From: a virus
Taxonomy: Duplodnaviria; Heunggongvirae; Uroviricota; Caudoviricetes
Length of the DNA: 9,508 nt
Strand: one strand, 5' to 3'
Virus record (IMG/VR): IMGVR_UViG_2706794675_000010
Below, in pieces: positions 243-7,960 of the stretch; the stretch's first letter is position 1; the number at the start of each line of letters is the position of its first letter. A program made the translations under genes and the position numbers. Under the pieces are notes generated by a model. That model was not told the origin of the DNA and made no database searches. It saw nothing but the letters and a program-made list of their open reading frames with translations.

Positions 243-1325
243 TCATTTTCTCTGGCTGATCTTTACCGGATAACCATCCCGAAGATCAATTAAGTGCTCC
301 GGTTCAGAAGCAAACCATGCATAAGATCCCCACGCCAATTCTGGTATTGCCTTTTTAAAAGGCAGAGCACTTCTGTCCATAAATGCCGTAAGGAATGCAA
401 GATTTTTCTCGCTGAACCCAGCGTCAATAGCCAAATGAGTGAGAGTAACTTTTCGTTCCCTGTTTATAGGCCCATCTGTCGCAACTACTTCAGTGAAAAC
501 TACAAGCATGTCCGAACCCGTTCGGTCCTCTCCCAAATCAATCAAAATAATATCTGGAAGTGCTTTTGAGGCATCAATATTCAGCCCCAATGCTTTTGCC
601 AATACATCATCCTGAGCAACAACTTTATTCCCGGATTCAGACAACCAGAGCACAGTTGGATTCTTAAGAAAATTAGGAGCAAAAACTTCGATGACGGCCT
701 TAGCTATTGTACTTGACGGGCCCGGAGCTAAAGTTCTCTTCTCTCCATTTGGGAAAGTGACGACTACGGCATCAGCAGCAATCACTGCCCCTGATTTCAA
801 TAAACGCAACCTAGCAAGAGCGGCTTTGTTCAAATGATTTTCTTGCCAGGAACTTATTGCACTCAGCAGCGAATCTCCTTCAAGCCCGGCATCAAAGAGT
901 GCTGCAAAAGAGCGATTCAAACTGTAACGAGGACGAGAGGATGTGGTGGGTATACCTTTACGCTCAACAATTGCATTGCAAGGTATTAGGCCATTTTTTA
1001 TAGTTTCATCACGTATTGGCTCACGCGTATTTTCCGCATACCATGCATCAGCAGGCCTTATCTTTTGTTTAGAGAAAGTCATCTTTACCCAGCTTTCTCT
1101 GGACGCATCATCAGTAAGAGCAGCCTGCGAATCTCCCATACTTACAACCTGGCTGGGCCTTATCCATCGCCCCAGCCCCTCAACCGCACCAGCATAAAAC
1201 ATGACAAAAATTGTTTTTGCAGCTATTTCCCGAATTAAATATCCACGATTCTCAGTCCCTTCAGGGAAAATTAATTGTAATCTTTCCCGGATAACATTCA
1301 ATGGGGGAACAACAGGCAGATTCAT
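243..1325 (-). CDS. Putative restriction endonuclease-like partner of the adjacent methyltransferase (possibly BsuBI/PstI-like Type II REase); function unproven
   Basis: 360-codon ORF. Its ATG (1325-1323) overlaps the TGA stop of the upstream methyltransferase gene (ATGA at 1322-1325), with GGAG about 10 nt upstream. N-terminal part looks winged-helix-like; C-terminal part has LPDIILIDLGED...MLVVFTEVVAT, which could be a degenerate PD-(D/E)xK core but lacks a clear ExK. Family guess rests on size, context and memory, not a search. Confidence 0.6.
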   Translation of the reverse strand: MNLPVVPPLNVIRERLQLIFPEGTENRGYLIREIAAKTIFVMFYAGAVEGLGRWIRPSQVVSMGDSQAALTDDASRESWVKMTFSKQKIRPADAWYAENTREPIRDETIKNGLIPCNAIVERKGIPTTSSRPRYSLNRSFAALFDAGLEGDSLLSAISSWQENHLNKAALARLRLLKSGAVIAADAVVVTFPNGEKRTLAPGPSSTIAKAVIEVFAPNFLKNPTVLWLSESGNKVVAQDDVLAKALGLNIDASKALPDIILIDLGEDRTGSDMLVVFTEVVATDGPINRERKVTLTHLAIDAGFSEKNLAFLTAFMDRSALPFKKAIPELAWGSYAWFASEPEHLIDLRDGYPVKISQRK

Positions 1326-3154
1326 GCAATCATCACTCCATAGAAACCAGCGATAGTTCTCTCAATAATCCGTCTGTGGACGCCAGCATCAATTAACGAT
1401 TGAATCTCCATCACCTGCTCCAGAGAAGGCAACGGGATTGAATTCAATTCATAGGCCGAAACAGCAACACTTCCGCTTATACACCTGAACGCCCGATCGA
1501 CAACATGCGAATTAAGTAGCATATCAATAACATCAGGGCGAACCGCAGAGAACAATCCGTTTGAATATACAATATTAATATGGTTTTCAACTACTACGCC
1601 ACCAGTTTCATCTATAAATCCCTGAGGTAAAATTGCCGCTAAAATCCTTCTGTCCTGTTCCTTCGATGTTGTCCGCTGAACAAGCACACATTCAGATTTT
1701 GTCACAAGGAAACCCTGTTGTGGGGTTATATCGATATAGGGAACATGATTTTTTCTGTCTGCACTAAAACGAAAACCAGCTGAAGTTATTGATTCCGCCC
1801 AGACTAATGGGTAGCTATTTTTTCCTTTCGTCGTACGCAACTGCGACTTAAATCGATTCCAGACTAACTGACCTGTAGAGACTGAGTATCCCAGATCAGC
1901 TAAACGCGTAGACATCTGTTTTAATACATTAAGAAAACAGGCATCATCTTTAACGCGTGGCAAAAGCCACGTTGCTCCACCTTTTTCTATATCAACATTA
2001 CCTATTTTCTCAATTTTTGCTTTGTTCAACCCCTTAGGGACAAGTGAGGATACCTGGGCCCGAACTTTATGTTCTCCCGCCTTGAATGCTGTCAACATTG
2101 TTTCCTGGAGAACATCGTCAAAGACCCCATCCCTGTCAGTGACGAAATCAAGGGCATACGGAGTAGTTTTTTCGGTCAAAAGGGTTCGCAGCGCGGTGAA
2201 ATACTGCCCACCAAGAAAAGAAGTTGGCGTAAGAAATGCAATAACTCCTGTTTTCTCTTTAACCATGCGAACAGCTAAGTCGGTGAACAATCCATATAGA
2301 TTTGCATGACCAAATAACGAACGAGAATATTTTTCTCTCGTTTTAATATCGAGAGTGACACGTCCGTAAGGCGGATTCCCTACCACAAGATCATAACCAG
2401 AAAATTTATCTTGCTGAAGCGCATCAGCAACAATAATTGTATCTTCAGGCAATCTACGTTTTACCTTTACACATAGTGGCATTAGTACAGATTCGAGCAA
2501 TACCAAACTCATCCAAGCCGCAAATGGATCGATCTCTATCCCCTTTAAACGACGACTGATTCTCCTCAACATCCATTCAGGGGAAGACCCCTTGTCTTTT
2601 TTTAACATTCGAATGGCTACTGGTGCCAAAAATGCACCGCCACCACACGCAGGATCAATAACCGATGCATGAGAAAAATCAACACCAGACTTTTCAGCCA
2701 GGTCCAAGAGACGCGCTACCAAAGGTGGGGGGGTATAGTAAGCCCCCAATTCCGAACGGTAAGCGGATGGCAGCATTACCGTATAAATTGACCCAATCAG
2801 ATATCCAGCGTCCTCCGCCGGAAATTGAGCAATAAGCTCACCTGTTCGTTCAGCGAGCTCGCGTGCATCACATGGAATGTCTTCTATGTAAACAGTGTGC
2901 GGTACTGCCCTCATTTTAATGCTGCTTTTTTGCTTTTTTGCAAGGGTATCCCAATATGCAGCTACGATGCTGAAGCAGTATGAGCGGGCATGCATCAACC
3001 TTGACTGCCCGGTTTTGTAATTGCCCGCATAACCTTTGGCCATGGCTTTACAAGTTTGATATCTTTCCAGATTAGAAAACTCATTATCTGTAAAAAAATC
3101 AAAATGTTGCACATTCATAATGTAAAATCCTAATGTATCAAACATGCGGGCCAT
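1322..3154 (-). CDS. Gamma-class N6-adenine DNA methyltransferase (TaqI/Eco57I-like), 610 aa with C-terminal target-recognition region
   Basis: Motif X-like GAYYTPP (aa 137-143), motif I VIDPACGGGAFL (verified on DNA, minus strand of 2627-2656), motif IV GNPPYG (minus strand of 2366-2377). Order X, I, IV with about 340 aa of C-terminal extension fits gamma-class amino-methyltransferases. Start uncertain: ATG at 3154 has a weak SD; an in-frame ATG at 3118 has AGGA 9 nt upstream. Confidence 0.85.
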   Translation of the reverse strand: MARMFDTLGFYIMNVQHFDFFTDNEFSNLERYQTCKAMAKGYAGNYKTGQSRLMHARSYCFSIVAAYWDTLAKKQKSSIKMRAVPHTVYIEDIPCDARELAERTGELIAQFPAEDAGYLIGSIYTVMLPSAYRSELGAYYTPPPLVARLLDLAEKSGVDFSHASVIDPACGGGAFLAPVAIRMLKKDKGSSPEWMLRRISRRLKGIEIDPFAAWMSLVLLESVLMPLCVKVKRRLPEDTIIVADALQQDKFSGYDLVVGNPPYGRVTLDIKTREKYSRSLFGHANLYGLFTDLAVRMVKEKTGVIAFLTPTSFLGGQYFTALRTLLTEKTTPYALDFVTDRDGVFDDVLQETMLTAFKAGEHKVRAQVSSLVPKGLNKAKIEKIGNVDIEKGGATWLLPRVKDDACFLNVLKQMSTRLADLGYSVSTGQLVWNRFKSQLRTTKGKNSYPLVWAESITSAGFRFSADRKNHVPYIDITPQQGFLVTKSECVLVQRTTSKEQDRRILAAILPQGFIDETGGVVVENHINIVYSNGLFSAVRPDVIDMLLNSHVVDRAFRCISGSVAVSAYELNSIPLPSLEQVMEIQSLIDAGVHRRIIERTIAGFYGVMIA

Positions 3155-3368
3155 AACATCTCATGGTGGCGCATAGCAAACTGGCCCGAAGAATATCACG
3201 CACCAAGTCGATCTCATAACCCGTTATGACAATAAATCTTTGTAGCTGAACTCACTTGGTGATTTGTCAATCATTCCTGGCCTCCAGTTCGTCCTGAATC
3301 TCTTTATCGAGTTCACCGTATTTGTTAGTCCTCATCACTCACGACTTGACTTCCAGAAATAACCTTGA
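3155..3368 (-). promoter_or_regulatory. Intergenic region upstream of the methyltransferase operon; candidate independent promoter (unmapped)
   Basis: 214 bp without a convincing ORF, in a stretch where the other genes are tightly packed or overlapping. Contains a perfect TTGACA on the minus strand (plus 3265-3270), but I could not pair it with a good -10 hexamer. Confidence 0.3.
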
Positions 3369-3725
3369 TTATTCGGGGCTATATTTTGTCACCCTGCGTA
3401 TCCGCGCTTTCGCATTACGCTCAATCTGGATTAGCTTTTCTATATTTTTTCGCCTTTCCCGCTCCTCCTGGCGCAAGAGCCTTACATCATCTGCCAGTCT
3501 GGTTTCTCTTTTCGCCACAGAGAGCATCCAGTCAAATGGCTCCACAACTGCACCGCAAATTTTACAGCGGACCTGACGCTCTTTTTCGTCAACCCGGACA
3601 GAAGCGTGATGGCAATATGGTCTTTCCGATGGCTCATAAAGAAAATTAACCTGATTACGAGGGTTATCCTCTTTTACCGGAAATAAAACAATATTGCTTA
3701 ACTCATCTTCTGGTTTTATTTCCAT
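3369..3725 (-). CDS. Hypothetical protein, 118 aa, with Cys/His cluster (zinc-ribbon-like) and basic coiled-coil-like C-terminus
   Basis: ORF with strong SD AGGAGAGGAG immediately upstream of the ATG at 3725-3723. The track's longer version starts at a GTG at 3782 directly after the upstream stop. Motif PYCHH...x17...CKIC; C-terminal tail rich in R/E/K. Confidence 0.55.
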   Translation of the reverse strand: MEIKPEDELSNIVLFPVKEDNPRNQVNFLYEPSERPYCHHASVRVDEKERQVRCKICGAVVEPFDWMLSVAKRETRLADDVRLLRQEERERRKNIEKLIQIERNAKARIRRVTKYSPE

Positions 3726-3782
3726 GCTCCTCTCCTTTGATGCGAATGCCAGCGGTAATTGAAGCCTGATAGCTAATTTCAC

Positions 3783-4205
3783 TCACAGTACCGCCTCCTG
3801 AAAATCACCCTGATAGAAAGCCGGTACACGCTGCATAACTTCACTCTTCCGGCACTCGCGACAGATTATGTTCTGATGTCTGTCGTAGCGGCGTATTTCT
3901 CCGTCCGGTAATGACCAGATAAGGTCCGGATCAACCACAGATGGTTTCTTCAGCTTTGCCCTCGAGAGTTTTTTGCGGGCGTTTTGCCAGTCCTTACGAG
4001 CCTGTTCAGACGGGAATAACCCGTAGCCAGAGTTGTATACATCCCCACTGGCAACCAGCTCTCTGGCGAGAACGCTTATTAAATATCTTGTCGCCCCGGT
4101 TTTAGCTTCCAGTTGTCGTAACGTCTCGCGCCCACTCTGGCGTACGAGTTCAACAACCTGCCCCTTAATTTTTTCCCGCTCTTCCTGTGTAAATACTTTT
4201 GCCAT
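3783..4205 (-). CDS. Hypothetical protein, 140 aa, with N-terminal HTH-like segment and C-terminal CxxC
   Basis: ATG at 4205-4203 (MAKVFTQEE...) preceded by a G-rich SD (GGGGG) and lying 15 nt after the upstream stop at 4221-4223; the track ORF begins at a TTG at 4220. HTH-like LRQLEAKTGATRYLISVLARELV; CRECRK near the C-terminus. No family recognised. Confidence 0.55.
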   Translation of the reverse strand: MAKVFTQEEREKIKGQVVELVRQSGRETLRQLEAKTGATRYLISVLARELVASGDVYNSGYGLFPSEQARKDWQNARKKLSRAKLKKPSVVDPDLIWSLPDGEIRRYDRHQNIICRECRKSEVMQRVPAFYQGDFQEAVL

Positions 4206-4967: not shown

Positions 4968-5470
4968 TTACTTCACAACTCCCGGAAAGCTGACATTTGA
5001 ACGCCAGCTATCCCAGTTAAACGTCACCCACCGACAACCGTTCATGGTCATGCGGTCCATAATCCTCTCACCAAGAAGCGTGCTCATTGCGGCATGATTC
5101 AGGTTTGTTAACATCCCGACACTGCACAGTGATGCTGTCCGGCGATCAATTATCTGGTGCAATACCACCTGCTCGTTTTTCGTCTCCCGCTGAATGCCTA
5201 TTTCATCCAGGACCAGCAAATCAACCCCGCAAAGCTCCTGTAAAAATTTTTCACCGGATTTGCCGTTGTCGTAGCTGTCATGCAACACGCTCATGACATC
5301 AGACTCGGTGACGATAATCACGCTGCGCCCCTTCGCCATCAGCCGGTTACCCATCGCCGCTGCAAGGTGATTTTTCCCGGTGCCGGTTTTACCGCTGAAC
5401 ACAAAATTCGTGCACCCGGTCATCAGTTCGTCAGCTATGGATTTGGCCTGGCTCAGCGCGTATTTTTGCC
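4968..5470 (-). CDS. DnaC-like helicase loader / IstB-like AAA+ ATPase (lambda P-position replication protein); 5' end missing in the N-run gap
   Basis: Walker A FSGKTGTGKN verified on the minus strand of about 5371-5400; Walker B LLVLDEIG. About 167 residues are visible, so the N-terminal portion lies in the gap. TAA stop at 4968-4970. Confidence 0.85.
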
Positions 5471-5748
5471 NNNNNNNNNNNNNNNNNNNNNNNNNNNNNN
5501 NNNNNNNNNNNNNNNNNNNNNNNNNNNNNNNNNNNNNNNNNNNNNNNNNNNNNNNNNNNNNNNNNNNNNNNNNNNNNNNNNNNNNNNNNNNNNNNNNNNN
5601 NNNNNNNNNNNNNNNNNNNNNNNNNNNNNNNNNNNNNNNNNNNNNNNNNNNNNNNNNNNNNNNNNNNNNNNNNNNNNNNNNNNNNNNNNNNNNNNNNNNN
5701 NNNNNNNNNNNNNNNNNNNNNNNNNNNNNNNNNNNNNNNNNNNNNNNN
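5471..5748. other. Run of 278 N (assembly gap or masked sequence)
   Basis: Ns directly visible from 5471 to 5748. The gap removes the 3' end of the O-like gene and the 5' end of the DnaC-like gene. Track ORFs that are mostly X across this span are artefacts. Confidence 0.99.
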
Positions 5749-6591
5749 CACCCCCTCGCGCAATCTGGCCTTCCAGGCACTGAATGCGGATTTCTTCGGG
5801 TTTGCCCCGGCACGCAACGGGTATTCCCGCCAGACCTGTTCGAACACATCCGGATAATCCACTCGTCCCACAGGCTGCCCGGTGTTTTCCGGGGCTACCC
5901 GATCGGCTTCCCGCTGAATGGCGGAATCGGCTTCAGGCTGCTGCAGTTGGAGTGATTGCTCCGGCCTTGCGGTCATCACCTGCTGCACAGCGCCCGAATC
6001 GGCTTTCAGCGCATACGCTGAATCGGCTTCCGGTGTCGAGCCTGCTGGCTGACCAGGATTGACGGTCTGAACATCCCCTGCCTGGTTCGTGGCGTTTTTT
6101 ACGCCATGGACCATAGTGTTTTGATCTTCTTTATCTGTATCTTTATCTGTATCTGTCGTGACTCGTCGTGACATGTGCGTGACATTTCGTGACGCGCCGT
6201 GACAATCGCCATTTTGTTCCCGCTTTCTTTCCCTCTCTCGCTGCGCCCTCTTGCGCTCTGCAGGAGATTTTGCGGTTTGCGAAATATTGCCGTTGTCCTC
6301 TTTAAGCACCTGGCGTTTTTCCCATCCAGTGATTAAATCACCATCAAGTACCCGCCCCTGCATCGTCTGCAAAATTGAATCAATTACCTCTTCTGTCACG
6401 TCGAGCGCACTTGCCAAATCTTCTGTCGTGACATCAATGTGACCTCGCGTGACATTTCGTGACGCGCTCACCAGGAGGTGGATATACACTGCCATCACTG
6501 TTGCAATTGGCTGCCCTGACACCCTGGCAATTGTTCGCCACTTAGGGTCATTTGGCATGTCATGCCATAATCTGAGCCAGGCGTTAGCCAT
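5749..6591 (-). CDS. Replication initiator (lambda O-like / Rac YdaU-like replisome organiser); 3' end missing in the gap
   Basis: ATG at 6591-6589 with SD GAGGTGA 5 nt upstream (track start is a GTG at 6597). Occupies the O position between the CII-like and DnaC-like genes. Two iteron arrays lie inside the coding sequence, as for lambda ori inside O. Frame is continuous to the gap edge at 5749. Confidence 0.75.
6128..6203. repeat. Candidate replication origin, array 1: tandem 12-bp AT-rich repeat followed by five CGTGAC iterons
   Basis: TCTTTATCTGTA occurs twice in tandem (6128-6139, 6140-6151). CGTGAC recurs at 6157, 6167, 6178, 6188 and 6198, i.e. spacings of 10, 11, 10, 10 bp, about one helical turn. 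Confidence 0.6.
6395..6467. repeat. Candidate replication origin, array 2: (C/T)GTGAC iterons plus one inverted copy
   Basis: CGTGAC at 6427, 6448, 6458 and TGTGAC at 6438 (spacings 11, 10, 10); inverted GTCACG at 6395-6400. The 21-mer GCGTGACATTTCGTGACGCGC is identical at 6177-6197 and 6447-6467. Confidence 0.55.
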
Positions 6592-6662: not shown

Positions 6663-7088
6663 TCAATGTACTGCCACAGCATTTCCTGCCGGGCCACCAC
6701 GGTTCATCTGATTGAAACCGGCGATTGCCACTGCGACAAAATCATCAGCGTCTCTCACCAGTCGTTCATGCGTCTCCACCAGTTCCCGAAAATAAGCTGA
6801 ACTGTGGCTGCGCATTCGAGCCACCAGCGGAGGTGGCATTGCCCTTTCGATCGCAGGTAACAACGCCTGAATTTTTTCAACAGCGTCAGGGGTGTCTTTA
6901 TCCAGCCAACGGAAAATCTTTTGGGTGTTGAGATAAAGCGTGTTGTGCTTGCTGTCGTTATGCAGAACCGGAAACGTCATTCCCAGTTCGAAATAAACCC
7001 TGGTTATTTCAGCTGCCGGAACTTTTTCACCGTCCGGATGCGCCCAGGCTTTCATCGCCATGCGGATGTGTTCATGCTTGATTTTCAT
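6663..7088 (-). CDS. YdaT-like protein (CII-position regulator of Rac-type prophages)
   Basis: 141-aa ORF beginning MKIKHEHI..., which I remember as the N-terminus of the E. coli Rac-prophage YdaT family. Its ATG (7088-7086) overlaps the TGA stop of the Cro-like gene (ATGA). Sits between the Cro-like and O-like genes. Confidence 0.65.
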   Translation of the reverse strand: MKIKHEHIRMAMKAWAHPDGEKVPAAEITRVYFELGMTFPVLHNDSKHNTLYLNTQKIFRWLDKDTPDAVEKIQALLPAIERAMPPPLVARMRSHSSAYFRELVETHERLVRDADDFVAVAIAGFNQMNRGGPAGNAVAVH

Positions 7089-7348
7089 GAATCAACCCCC
7101 GCCGATGGTTGTGTGTTAGCCTGAAACTCAGCAGGCAAGCCGTCAGTTGGGTTGGGGTAGGTTTTACTGTCAATCTCATGTGGGGTCACCACCCATCCCG
7201 TTGCTTCACACCAACGTAATATTTTTTCTCCTGTAAGTTTTGCACGCCCCGTTATAACGTGGCTGACCATCCCTTGGGATGCGCCAACAATCTCAGCAAA
7301 TGAACTCTGGGTTATATGAAAATGATGCAAATATTCTCCAAGATTCAT
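7085..7348 (-). CDS. Cro-like HTH transcriptional regulator (YdaS-like)
   Basis: HTH segment ITQSSFAEIVGASQGMVSHVITGRAKLTGEKI. Divergent from the cI-like gene across an operator-bearing intergenic region. ATG at 7348-7346 chosen; the track's longer ORF starts at a TTG at 7375. Confidence 0.7.
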   Translation of the reverse strand: MNLGEYLHHFHITQSSFAEIVGASQGMVSHVITGRAKLTGEKILRWCEATGWVVTPHEIDSKTYPNPTDGLPAEFQANTQPSAGVDS

Positions 7349-7384
7349 AATCCGCCCTATGTGATGTGTTACCAATGCATAATT

Positions 7385-7425: not shown

Positions 7426-7459
7426 CAAAGTGATTAGCAATCTTATTAGAATTGGATGT

Positions 7460-7960
7460 ATGAAAAGAAAATCATTGTCAGACACCGACCTCAACGCCGC
7501 CAGAAGACTGAAAGAAATCTGGATGGCAAAGAAATCTCAGTTGGGATTGACTCAGGAACGTGCGGCGGAAATTATGGGGTTTTCAACACAAGGGGCGGTA
7601 AGTCACTACCTAAATGGTCAAACCCCACTAAACCTTGAGGCTGTTCTAAAGTTTGCTGGCTTACTGAAAGTTCCCCCTGAGTCAATCAGGCCAGACATGG
7701 TAGATTTGCTGCAAATTGCAAGGATGTATTGTCGAGAACCACAGCAAGATAACATAGTCGCATTACCAGCAGACACAGAACAAACAGAGGATGAACTACC
7801 GTTTGCCGTAGAGCCGATGGAACGAGATTTAATCCATACGTTCAGAGCTTTTCCGAAAGAAGATCAAGAACACATGCTTCAGGAGATGAAAGATAAAAAA
7901 GAATCAATGGATCGTACGGTTGCGCGGTGGTTAGCTGCACAAAAAGGCCGTCGCGCCTAA
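7460..7960 (+). CDS. cI-like XRE-family HTH transcriptional regulator (PaaR-like) without a recognisable S24 peptidase domain
   Basis: HTH segment LTQERAAEIMGFSTQGAVSHYLNGQTPLNLEAV. ATG at 7460 (track ORF starts at a GTG at 7430). Transcribed divergently from the Cro-like gene and followed on the same strand by a toxin-antitoxin pair, as in the paaR-paaA-parE arrangement I recall from E. coli O157:H7 prophages. Confidence 0.75.
   Translation: MKRKSLSDTDLNAARRLKEIWMAKKSQLGLTQERAAEIMGFSTQGAVSHYLNGQTPLNLEAVLKFAGLLKVPPESIRPDMVDLLQIARMYCREPQQDNIVALPADTEQTEDELPFAVEPMERDLIHTFRAFPKEDQEHMLQEMKDKKESMDRTVARWLAAQKGRRA

Follow-up and report, generated by a model that had tools for sequence, protein, structure and literature searches.

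The initiator ('replisome organizer') gene described here occupies positions 5749–6591 (minus strand, ATG at 6591; phrog_3729) of a 9508-nt stretch of DNA, hereafter called the window, from a tailed virus (Caudoviricetes; IMG/VR record IMGVR_UViG_2706794675_000010). Within the gene lie two arrays of six-base repeats that recur once per helical turn, one of them adjoining an AT-rich tandem tract, and this region is very probably the replication origin of a lambdoid (Qin/Rac-like) Escherichia coli prophage, lying within the gene that encodes the prophage's own initiator. As judged from the sequence, the initiator would bind the repeats, the tract would be unwound, and replication would start here. 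By analogy with characterized systems the element would be of a known kind, an origin inside an initiator gene that combines iterons with an unwinding element.

Phased repeats under selection as DNA

The first or linker array (array 1) lies at 6157–6203 and consists of five GTCACG cores on the gene (minus) strand, with spacings of 10, 11, 10 and 10 bp. It encodes residues 130–146, between the N-terminal domain and the C-terminal part of the protein. On the plus strand the cores read CGTGAC and start at 6157, 6167, 6178, 6188 and 6198, exactly where the original prediction had placed five repeats at 10–11 bp intervals, and Tandem Repeats Finder (TRF) reported a 10-bp period (4.9 copies) at 6155–6204. 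The second or N-domain array (array 2; 6427–6463, minus strand) has four GTCAC(G/A) cores spaced by 10, 10 and 11 bp on the gene strand, with plus-strand starts at 6427, 6438 (TGTGAC), 6448 and 6458 (11, 10 and 10 bp), and encodes residues 43–55 (ASRNVTRGHIDVT). A single inverted core (6395–6400, GTCACG on the plus strand and CGTGAC on the gene strand) sits 27 bp beyond array 2 and encodes D64-V65-T66. The located copies agree with the second array of four (C/T)GTGAC repeats plus one inverted copy that had been predicted at 6395–6463. The two arrays are also joined, as had been noticed earlier, by an identical 21-mer, GCGTGACATTTCGTGACGCGC, found at 6177–6197 in array 1 and at 6447–6467 in array 2; the two copies are separated by 270 bp, or exactly 90 codons.

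All nine CGTGAC hexamers of the window fall within 307 bp (6157–6463). The number expected in the whole window is 2.8, and nine copies were reached in none of 200 dinucleotide-preserving shuffles. A similar concentration is seen in the 46-kb genome of Escherichia phage Tritos, where phased GTCAC-N5-GTCAC pairs are confined to the initiator gene (5 seen versus 0.05 expected), and no second distant array in the style of the oriR of phage SPP1 was found in that genome. A possible DnaA box near 6476–6490 was dismissed; it has two mismatches by eye and is not conserved in a Pseudomonas relative.

Adjoining array 1 is a purine-rich, AT-rich tandem tract (6116–6156, minus strand; gene-strand sequence GATACAGATAAAGATACAGATAAAGAAGATCAAAAC), which is proposed as a DNA unwinding element. 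TRF resolved it into a 12-bp unit, TCTTTATCTGTA, repeated 2.2 times at 6128–6154, matching the tandem 12-bp AT-rich repeat expected at 6128–6151, and also into a 6-bp unit repeated 4.8 times. The GC content of the initiator gene reaches its minimum here, 30% at 6110–6149 versus 55–65% on either side. Length polymorphism was examined in 80 near-identical E. coli prophage copies, a set that is uninformative for covariation. The five iterons are constant in number in all of them, and the GATA(A/C)A tract varies in length by 6 or 12 bp, giving segments of 93, 99, 105, 111, 123 and over 135 nt that remain in frame and gain or lose DK/DT dipeptides; the short allele of the window occurs in 3 of the 80. 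Beyond the tract is an inverted repeat (6083–6113) with a perfect core, TGGCGT-aaaaa-ACGCCA, that extends to 13 pairs when mismatches are allowed. On the plus strand of the window this hairpin also scores as terminator-like, antisense to the initiator gene.

The repeats are part of a coding sequence, and one explanation is that the protein requires them, as SRNVT, VT and DKDT peptides, with the DNA periodicity a by-product. Translation of the minus strand yields ASRNVT twice (residues 43–48 and 133–138) as well as VTTDTDKDTDKED, so that the repeated SRNVT and the peptide named in the original prediction are both present, and the DTDK repeat is in frame. The nine direct GTCAC(G) copies, however, begin at codon positions 1, 2 and 3, and a single DNA word is thereby read as V-T, (G/C)-H or S-R according to frame. 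Codon usage was compared across the aligned N-terminal domains of 23 species with GTCACG cores, among them E. coli, E. albertii, Serratia, Rahnella, Aeromonas, Pseudomonas, Bordetella, Chromobacterium, Acidovorax and Gilvimarinus, whose proteins are 60–75% identical. Six codons of array 2 are invariant in 23/23 species (V47 GTC, T48 ACG, G50 GGT, H51 CAC, V54 GTC and T55 ACG), the S44 codon is TCA in 22/23, and the V65 codon of the inverted copy is GTG in all 21 species that keep this valine. Conserved residues outside the cores use two to six synonymous codons: V32 is encoded by GTG (6), GTC (9), GTA (1) or GTT (7), T20 by all four Thr codons, and G79, R80 and V81 by three to five codons each. 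When tallied by hand from the codon table, 7 of 8 codons are monomorphic inside array 2 and the inverted copy versus none of 32 equally conserved degenerate codons outside (Fisher p = 4e-7). Synonymous positions are thus frozen inside the cores and drift outside them, which indicates that the repeats are selected as a nucleotide sequence and not as a peptide. Moreover, linker peptides are not conserved even among the GTCACG phages, and across the wider family the loop peptide changes wholly (SRNVTRGH, SNATERGRT, STATQGNADATRGN) while the repeats keep their DNA period and the two arrays continue to match each other. The frame and codon data exclude a purely protein-level cause, an explanation to which we give practically no credence.

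Frozen synonymous sites would equally fit selection on RNA, either for mRNA structure or for the site of a translational regulator, and base-pairing between the inverted copy and one of the direct copies is conceivable. A 10–11 nt period with the core in one orientation is instead suited to binding along one face of duplex DNA, and an RNA-level role is considered extremely unlikely. As an RNA structure the arrays were rejected, since they fold no more stably than shuffled sequences (z = -1.2 and +0.9) and have no match in Rfam.

In two relatives the array 2 loop is longer than in the window. The E. albertii locus (L087) carries a 21-nt (7 aa) in-frame insert, and that of Pseudomonas sp. JAI111 (L111) a much longer one, and both inserts add phased GTCAC copies, which suggests that the loop tolerates expansion by whole iterons.

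Concerted motif change across the initiator family

A tblastn search of phages, together with a scan of one genome per species, provided 85 diverse loci. This prophage is not peculiar in its two-array layout, which proved to be conserved in a large family of initiators. A linker array of at least three copies was found at a constant position in the gene in 64 of 81 scorable relatives, typically as 3–6 hexamers at 10–11 bp spacing and about 300–480 nt past a conserved WLRLWH motif. The hexamer itself differs between lineages, being GTCACG in Enterobacteria, Aeromonas, Pseudomonas, Bordetella and others, GAACGC in many Burkholderiales and Sphingomonads, GCAACG in Ralstonia, Cupriavidus and Burkholderia, GTGACG in Paraburkholderia and Caballeronia, and GTAACG in Enterobacter, Pantoea and some others. 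The order of linker array, tract and inverted repeat recurs in Enterobacteria, Burkholderiales, Sphingomonads and some non-proteobacterial metagenome-assembled genomes, and the layout is kept although C-terminal domains and helicase partners vary among these hosts.

Each array was assigned to a class by its commonest NNACG pentamer, and the classes of the two arrays were compared in the 64 loci with at least three linker copies. They agree in 48 (TC in 23, GA in 14, TA in 4, TG in 4 and CA in 3), and in none of the 64 has the N-domain array replaced the core of the linker by any of the four other recurring cores. The change can be followed base by base in close relatives. Three GCAACG and three GTGACG loci, whose proteins are 55–63% identical, have arrays that match position for position and share spacers (caag, cagat, cgag), and hexamer positions 2–3 are changed in every copy of both arrays. 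Position 3 has switched likewise between Erwinia (GTCACG) and Enterobacter hormaechei (GTAACG), at 78% identity. These comparisons indicate that both arrays change motif in concert across lineages, and the loop peptide tracks the DNA motif (SRNVTRGH.DVT, SNATERGRT, STATQGNADATRGN, SVTQGDADVTRGD). When the protein alignment was sorted by motif class, no clean discriminating column appeared beyond the loop encoded by the iterons, the classes being confounded with phylogeny.

About 16 of the 64 loci have a linker array and no matching N-domain array (among them L119, L143, L148, L154, L158 and L159), and 12 of these have no copy of the linker core in that position; the inverted copy is present in many lineages, not in all. 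An equivalent tract (GATAAA, GATACA, GAAGCA, AGAGAAG or (GAA)n) directly follows the linker array in most relatives inspected. The linker array and the AT-rich or purine tract are near-universal in the family, and a short hairpin is frequent. A perfect stem of at least 6 bp occurs within about 45 nt after the tract at 26 of 81 loci versus 4% of shuffles and 2 of 78 control segments taken 60 nt further downstream; for stems of at least 7 bp the figures are 13 of 81 loci versus 0.8% of shuffles and 0 of 78 controls. The stems differ in sequence between loci, in a manner that looks like compensatory change, and mostly enclose 4-nt loops such as TGAC or TAAC. Part of this signal could come from the coding of Pro-Pro-x-Gly-Gly (CCN versus GGN). 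The pattern across relatives suggests that the linker array and purine tract are the core of the origin, with the N-domain array a widespread accessory that, where it occurs, always agrees with the core.

Arrays of short, phased repeats are found elsewhere as well: plasmid centromeres contain them, as do the pac sites within small-terminase genes. On that precedent the hexamers might be sites for another protein, such as a host factor, Cro, CI or the CII-like activator, or form a packaging or partition site. The arrays follow the N-terminal domain of the initiator from E. coli to Ralstonia and Sphingomonas, however, amid unrelated regulators and helicase partners, and the motif class tracks the subfamily of that domain. 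The gene is not a terminase, no par genes lie nearby, and the phased pairs seen in Tritos lie nowhere else in its genome. A site for some other protein is therefore very unlikely.

Two further observations concern the composition of the arrays. In Pantoea, Erwinia and Enterobacter loci (L105, L109, L110), both arrays mix GTCACG, GTAACG and GTTACG with their complements, and these mixtures form overlapping ACGT-centred palindromes in steps of about 5 bp (e.g., GTCACGtcacGTCACGtgacGTCACG) that are denser and partly symmetric. In GAACGC-class loci (e.g., L115, L122, L134) the conserved loop residues E-R-G are encoded by GAA CGC GGn, which contains GAACGC. Duplication around a codon string that chanced to match the origin motif may be how the N-domain array grew.

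The initiator, its proposed mode of action and its genomic setting

The initiator is readable to 5749, and about 75 codons at its 3' end are masked by a run of N (5471–5748). Its orthologue in phage Tritos is TRITO_36 (356 aa, 98% DNA identity), and the unmasked equivalent in E. coli 90-3040, also of 356 aa, is annotated as a 'phage replisome organizer'; NCBI names homologues either so or as 'DnaT-like ssDNA-binding domain-containing protein'. The PHROG family phrog_3729, 'replication initiation protein', is matched at E 3e-193 by the readable 280 aa and at E 1e-257 by the full-length Tritos orthologue. A Pfam scan of the latter with E up to 10 returned only sub-threshold HTH_Crp_2, PhyR_sigma2 and Phage_rep_org_N, and gave no match to the lambda O domain (Phage_rep_O). 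The match to Phage_rep_org_N (PF09681) is weak (E 0.12, 12.8 bits versus a cut-off of 23.3) and runs end to end, aligning residues 5–122 with profile positions 1–118 of 121. TIGR01714 is likewise below threshold (15.4 bits versus a cut-off of 49.8), and PHROG 'replisome organizer' families match at E 4e-6 and 2e-4. At the other end of the orthologue, residues 332–356 weakly resemble the C-terminus of DnaT (PDB 6aep, E 0.015; NF002770, E 0.0015), and this was the sole match in a search of PDB sequences. The DnaT C-terminal domain PF17948 is among the precomputed annotations of many homologues; the corresponding tail is masked in the window. Many of the database homologues are labelled 'partial', suggesting that assemblies frequently break in the initiator gene.

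An AlphaFold2 model of residues 1–130 (pLDDT 70) is consistent with a winged-helix-like fold: it has five helices and a beta hairpin, after which comes a basic helix (110–126). Mapped on the model, array 2 corresponds to the end of helix 3 and a loop of low confidence (residues 47–55), and array 1 to the segment after the basic helix, ahead of the variable C-terminal part. Both arrays are therefore located where the protein can tolerate a dictated sequence. The best Foldseek matches are winged helix-turn-helix regulators of the MarR, CAP and Rex types, all with E above 0.3.

In the mechanism we propose, the N-terminal helical, probably winged-helix, domain would bind the GTCACG cores. The cores share one orientation and occur once per helical turn, so protomers would align on one face of the DNA. 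The five linker sites (6157–6203) would build the core nucleoprotein complex, and this would destabilise the adjoining purine/AT-rich tract (6116–6156), just beyond which lies the inverted repeat (6083–6113). The C-terminal part with its weakly DnaT-like tail would then bring in a DnaC-like loader and the host DnaB. Array 2, 270 bp upstream, is proposed as an auxiliary element that would supply extra sites for the same protein, either strengthening the complex by cooperative looping or occupying the gene to limit its own transcription; its role is the least certain part of this reading.

Two views of array 2 bear on this point. It may be that the origin is in two parts, with the coding sequence of the N-terminal domain spelling out the protein's own sites and the arrays and binding specificity switching as one cassette, although this proposal is tentative and we would not rate it as probable. 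Such a cassette would create new groups of origin and initiator specificity among prophages, would let related prophages (up to four copies per E. coli genome) coexist without cross-activation or titration, and would make the upstream array a functional half of the origin or a copy-control element, not a passenger. Alternatively, array 2, and possibly array 1 as well, might bind the initiator mainly for control, as an autoregulatory roadblock or operator or through titration or handcuffing, an explanation that overlaps with that of an origin and that is on balance unlikely as the principal role. In plasmids, control iterons limit initiation. Because of its location about 130 nt into the coding region, array 2 would, if occupied by protein, act as a block to transcription of the initiator gene itself, and it is dispensable in some lineages that retain the linker array. 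It has no promoter partner, however, and computation cannot separate control from firing. The only promoter candidate near the arrays, a weak antisense match (9/12) at 6179–6206 in array 1, was at chance level and was rejected.

Several points weigh against the interpretation of the region as an origin of this design. Array 2 is missing from about a quarter of the comparable loci (the 16 or so of 64 given above) and so cannot be essential for origin function generally. The distance between arrays is not fixed to whole helical turns across relatives, and this lack of phase-locking also suits a control element. Motif classes largely follow phylogeny, so that independent switches are few, about four or five. 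Confidence in the AlphaFold2 model is only moderate at the pLDDT given, Foldseek found no significant neighbour in the PDB, and the predicted third helix of the helix-turn-helix (TEEVIDSILQTMQ) is acidic. Literature searches found no binding, unwinding or replication data for this family. With these points counted, an origin embedded in the initiator gene is still the reading we prefer.

The genes around the initiator follow the early-region order cI / cro / cII-like / initiator / DnaC-like. The presence of a DnaC-like gene beside the initiator, claimed in the original prediction, was confirmed by a match to phrog_50 (E 1.5e-60) for a helicase loader gene at 4968–5470 (minus strand), the 5' part of which is masked. 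Its Walker A motif, GKTGTGKN, was read by eye from the consensus sequence and not from a tool translation, and its counterpart in E. coli 90-3040 is a 248-aa 'ATP-binding protein'. Directly upstream of the initiator gene is a YdaT/CII-like gene (6663–7088, minus strand; PF06254, E 5e-9; phrog_163 'CII-like transcriptional activator', E 3e-40). It is preceded by a Cro-like helix-turn-helix regulator (7085–7375, minus strand; phrog_35, E 7e-17, with a weak HTH_3 match below the Pfam cut-off), which opens the rightward early operon running through the candidate origin, and by a divergent CI-like repressor (7430–7960, plus strand; HTH_3, E 9e-9, and repressor phrogs). Downstream of the initiator, on the same strand, are DUF1627 and DUF977/Ren-like genes. 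Open reading frames of 360 and 610 aa in positions 243–3154 (minus strand) match phrog_1639 and phrog_1600, families of phage restriction endonuclease and DNA methyltransferase, and restriction-modification or defence cargo likely adjoins the replication module.

The run of 278 N conceals where the initiator gene ends and where the loader gene begins. Together the two genes span 1824 nt in E. coli 90-3040 versus 1624 nt in the window; about 478 nt therefore belong where the 278 Ns stand, and the run, be it a gap or a mask, is not length-preserving. Initiators that are 97–99% identical are accompanied by a DnaC-like loader gene in the window and in E. coli 90-3040, and lack one in Tritos, Shigella flexneri and E. 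coli CFT073. In Tritos, a complete temperate and viable phage, the initiator is the sole annotated replication gene. The loader is therefore optional; through its weakly DnaT-like C-terminal tail, the initiator may be able to draw on the loading or restart proteins of the host. In other relatives the helicase partner can be DnaB or a primase-helicase instead of a DnaC-like loader.

A 501-bp stretch containing both arrays is present in 1817 of 5426 complete E. coli genomes, at up to four copies per genome. A search for plasmids that rely on the module was not decisive: apart from two 50.9-kb circular Pseudomonas phage genomes and a 1-Mb Azospirillum replicon, its hits were all large plasmids of E. 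coli or records of chromosome size. None of the records examined marks an origin, and the initiator gene is often annotated, as in CFT073, as a 'hypothetical protein'. Two records lack a coding sequence for it altogether: that of Pseudomonas phage phi1, despite a clean 310-aa open reading frame at 2468–3400, and a 50.9-kb circular P. aeruginosa record (3001–3897), in a plasmid gene table known to be incomplete.

Significance and comparison with known origins

The module is widespread: about one complete E. coli genome in three carries it, as do temperate phages that infect Aeromonas, Pseudomonas, Ralstonia and many other hosts. Full-text searches combining the motif with 'iteron' or the origin type, which did not cover the main review of phage replication modules, found no description of it. 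Relative to the literature found, four features appear to be new: 6-bp cores placed one per turn, a second array within the stretch that codes for the DNA-binding domain, a hexamer that switches in concert across the family, and a variable purine tract with a hairpin. A predictable specificity code, with xxACG hexamers that switch together, would allow origins to be predicted in many prophages, and an embedded origin would account for the mosaic structure of the gene, in which a conserved N-terminal domain meets C-terminal domains that can be swapped. The natural matched pairs (GCAACG/GTGACG and GTCACG/GTAACG) are well suited to the study of how a small helical domain reads six base pairs, and the gene offers a clear case of protein-coding and DNA-site constraints overlapping on one sequence.

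The iterons of lambda are about 19 bp long, dyad-symmetric and bound by O dimers, and a palindrome lies beyond the AT-rich tract of its origin. In lambda and the Stx phages, the origin is situated in the middle of the initiator gene, between the DNA-binding N-terminal and loader-recruiting C-terminal domains, in a pR-type early operon after cro and cII, and next after the repeats bound by the initiator is an AT-rich tract on which unwinding depends (PMC7466680). There are four repeats in lambda and six in Stx phages, the extra ones adding residues to the protein (PMC7466680). The candidate origin of the window is similar in that, judged by position, it lies between N- and C-terminal domains, has a tract of 30% GC directly downstream of the iterons in the direction of the gene, and presents iterons, AT-rich tract and inverted repeat in that order along the direction of early transcription. 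The original prediction of a lambda-type origin embedded in an O gene is therefore upheld as regards position in the initiator gene, repeats and AT-rich tract, but not as regards homology to lambda O or the nature of the iterons. Unlike O, the window initiator has no Phage_rep_O match; its iterons are 10–11 bp units with asymmetric 6-bp cores in one orientation, and a second array lies inside the sequence coding for the DNA-binding domain. In place of lambda P, the partner is a DnaC-like ATPase, and this is absent in Tritos and CFT073.

The gp38 protein of SPP1 binds direct repeats within its own gene (oriL), beside an AT-rich unwinding element, and acts with a helicase loader and a DnaB-type helicase; it has a second binding region, oriR (PMC6316719). 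The window has the same combination of direct repeats (with binding predicted) and AT-rich tract in its initiator gene, with a loader gene adjacent, and its initiator shares with gp38 an NCBI name and a weak, sub-threshold N-terminal resemblance (PF09681/TIGR01714). The two differ in that oriR is about 13 kb distant, in a different region of the genome, whereas array 2 is 270 bp away in the same gene, and in their hosts, the SPP1 family belonging to Firmicutes and that of the window to Proteobacteria and beyond. On these profile scores, any kinship between the window initiator and the replisome organizers of Firmicutes would be remote at best.

Origins of iteron plasmids and of the P1/P4 type also place sites of the same orientation beside an AT-rich element, sometimes with a second control or enhancer cluster, and the iterons of plasmids are typically 17–22 bp long and lie outside the rep coding sequence. 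The window shares the uniform orientation, the AT-rich element and the second cluster, but its cores are 6 bp and are within the initiator coding sequence. For the one extrachromosomal record examined, the 50.9-kb circular P. aeruginosa phage genome, no plasmid replicon type was assigned. In repABC plasmids the origin is inside repC, that is, in the coding sequence of the initiator (PMC3155836); that initiator is unrelated, and the abstract mentions no phased hexamer arrays for repABC. The best reading of these parallels is that the candidate origin would work in the manner of the lambda origin or SPP1 oriL, with an initiator that stands outside the lambda O family.

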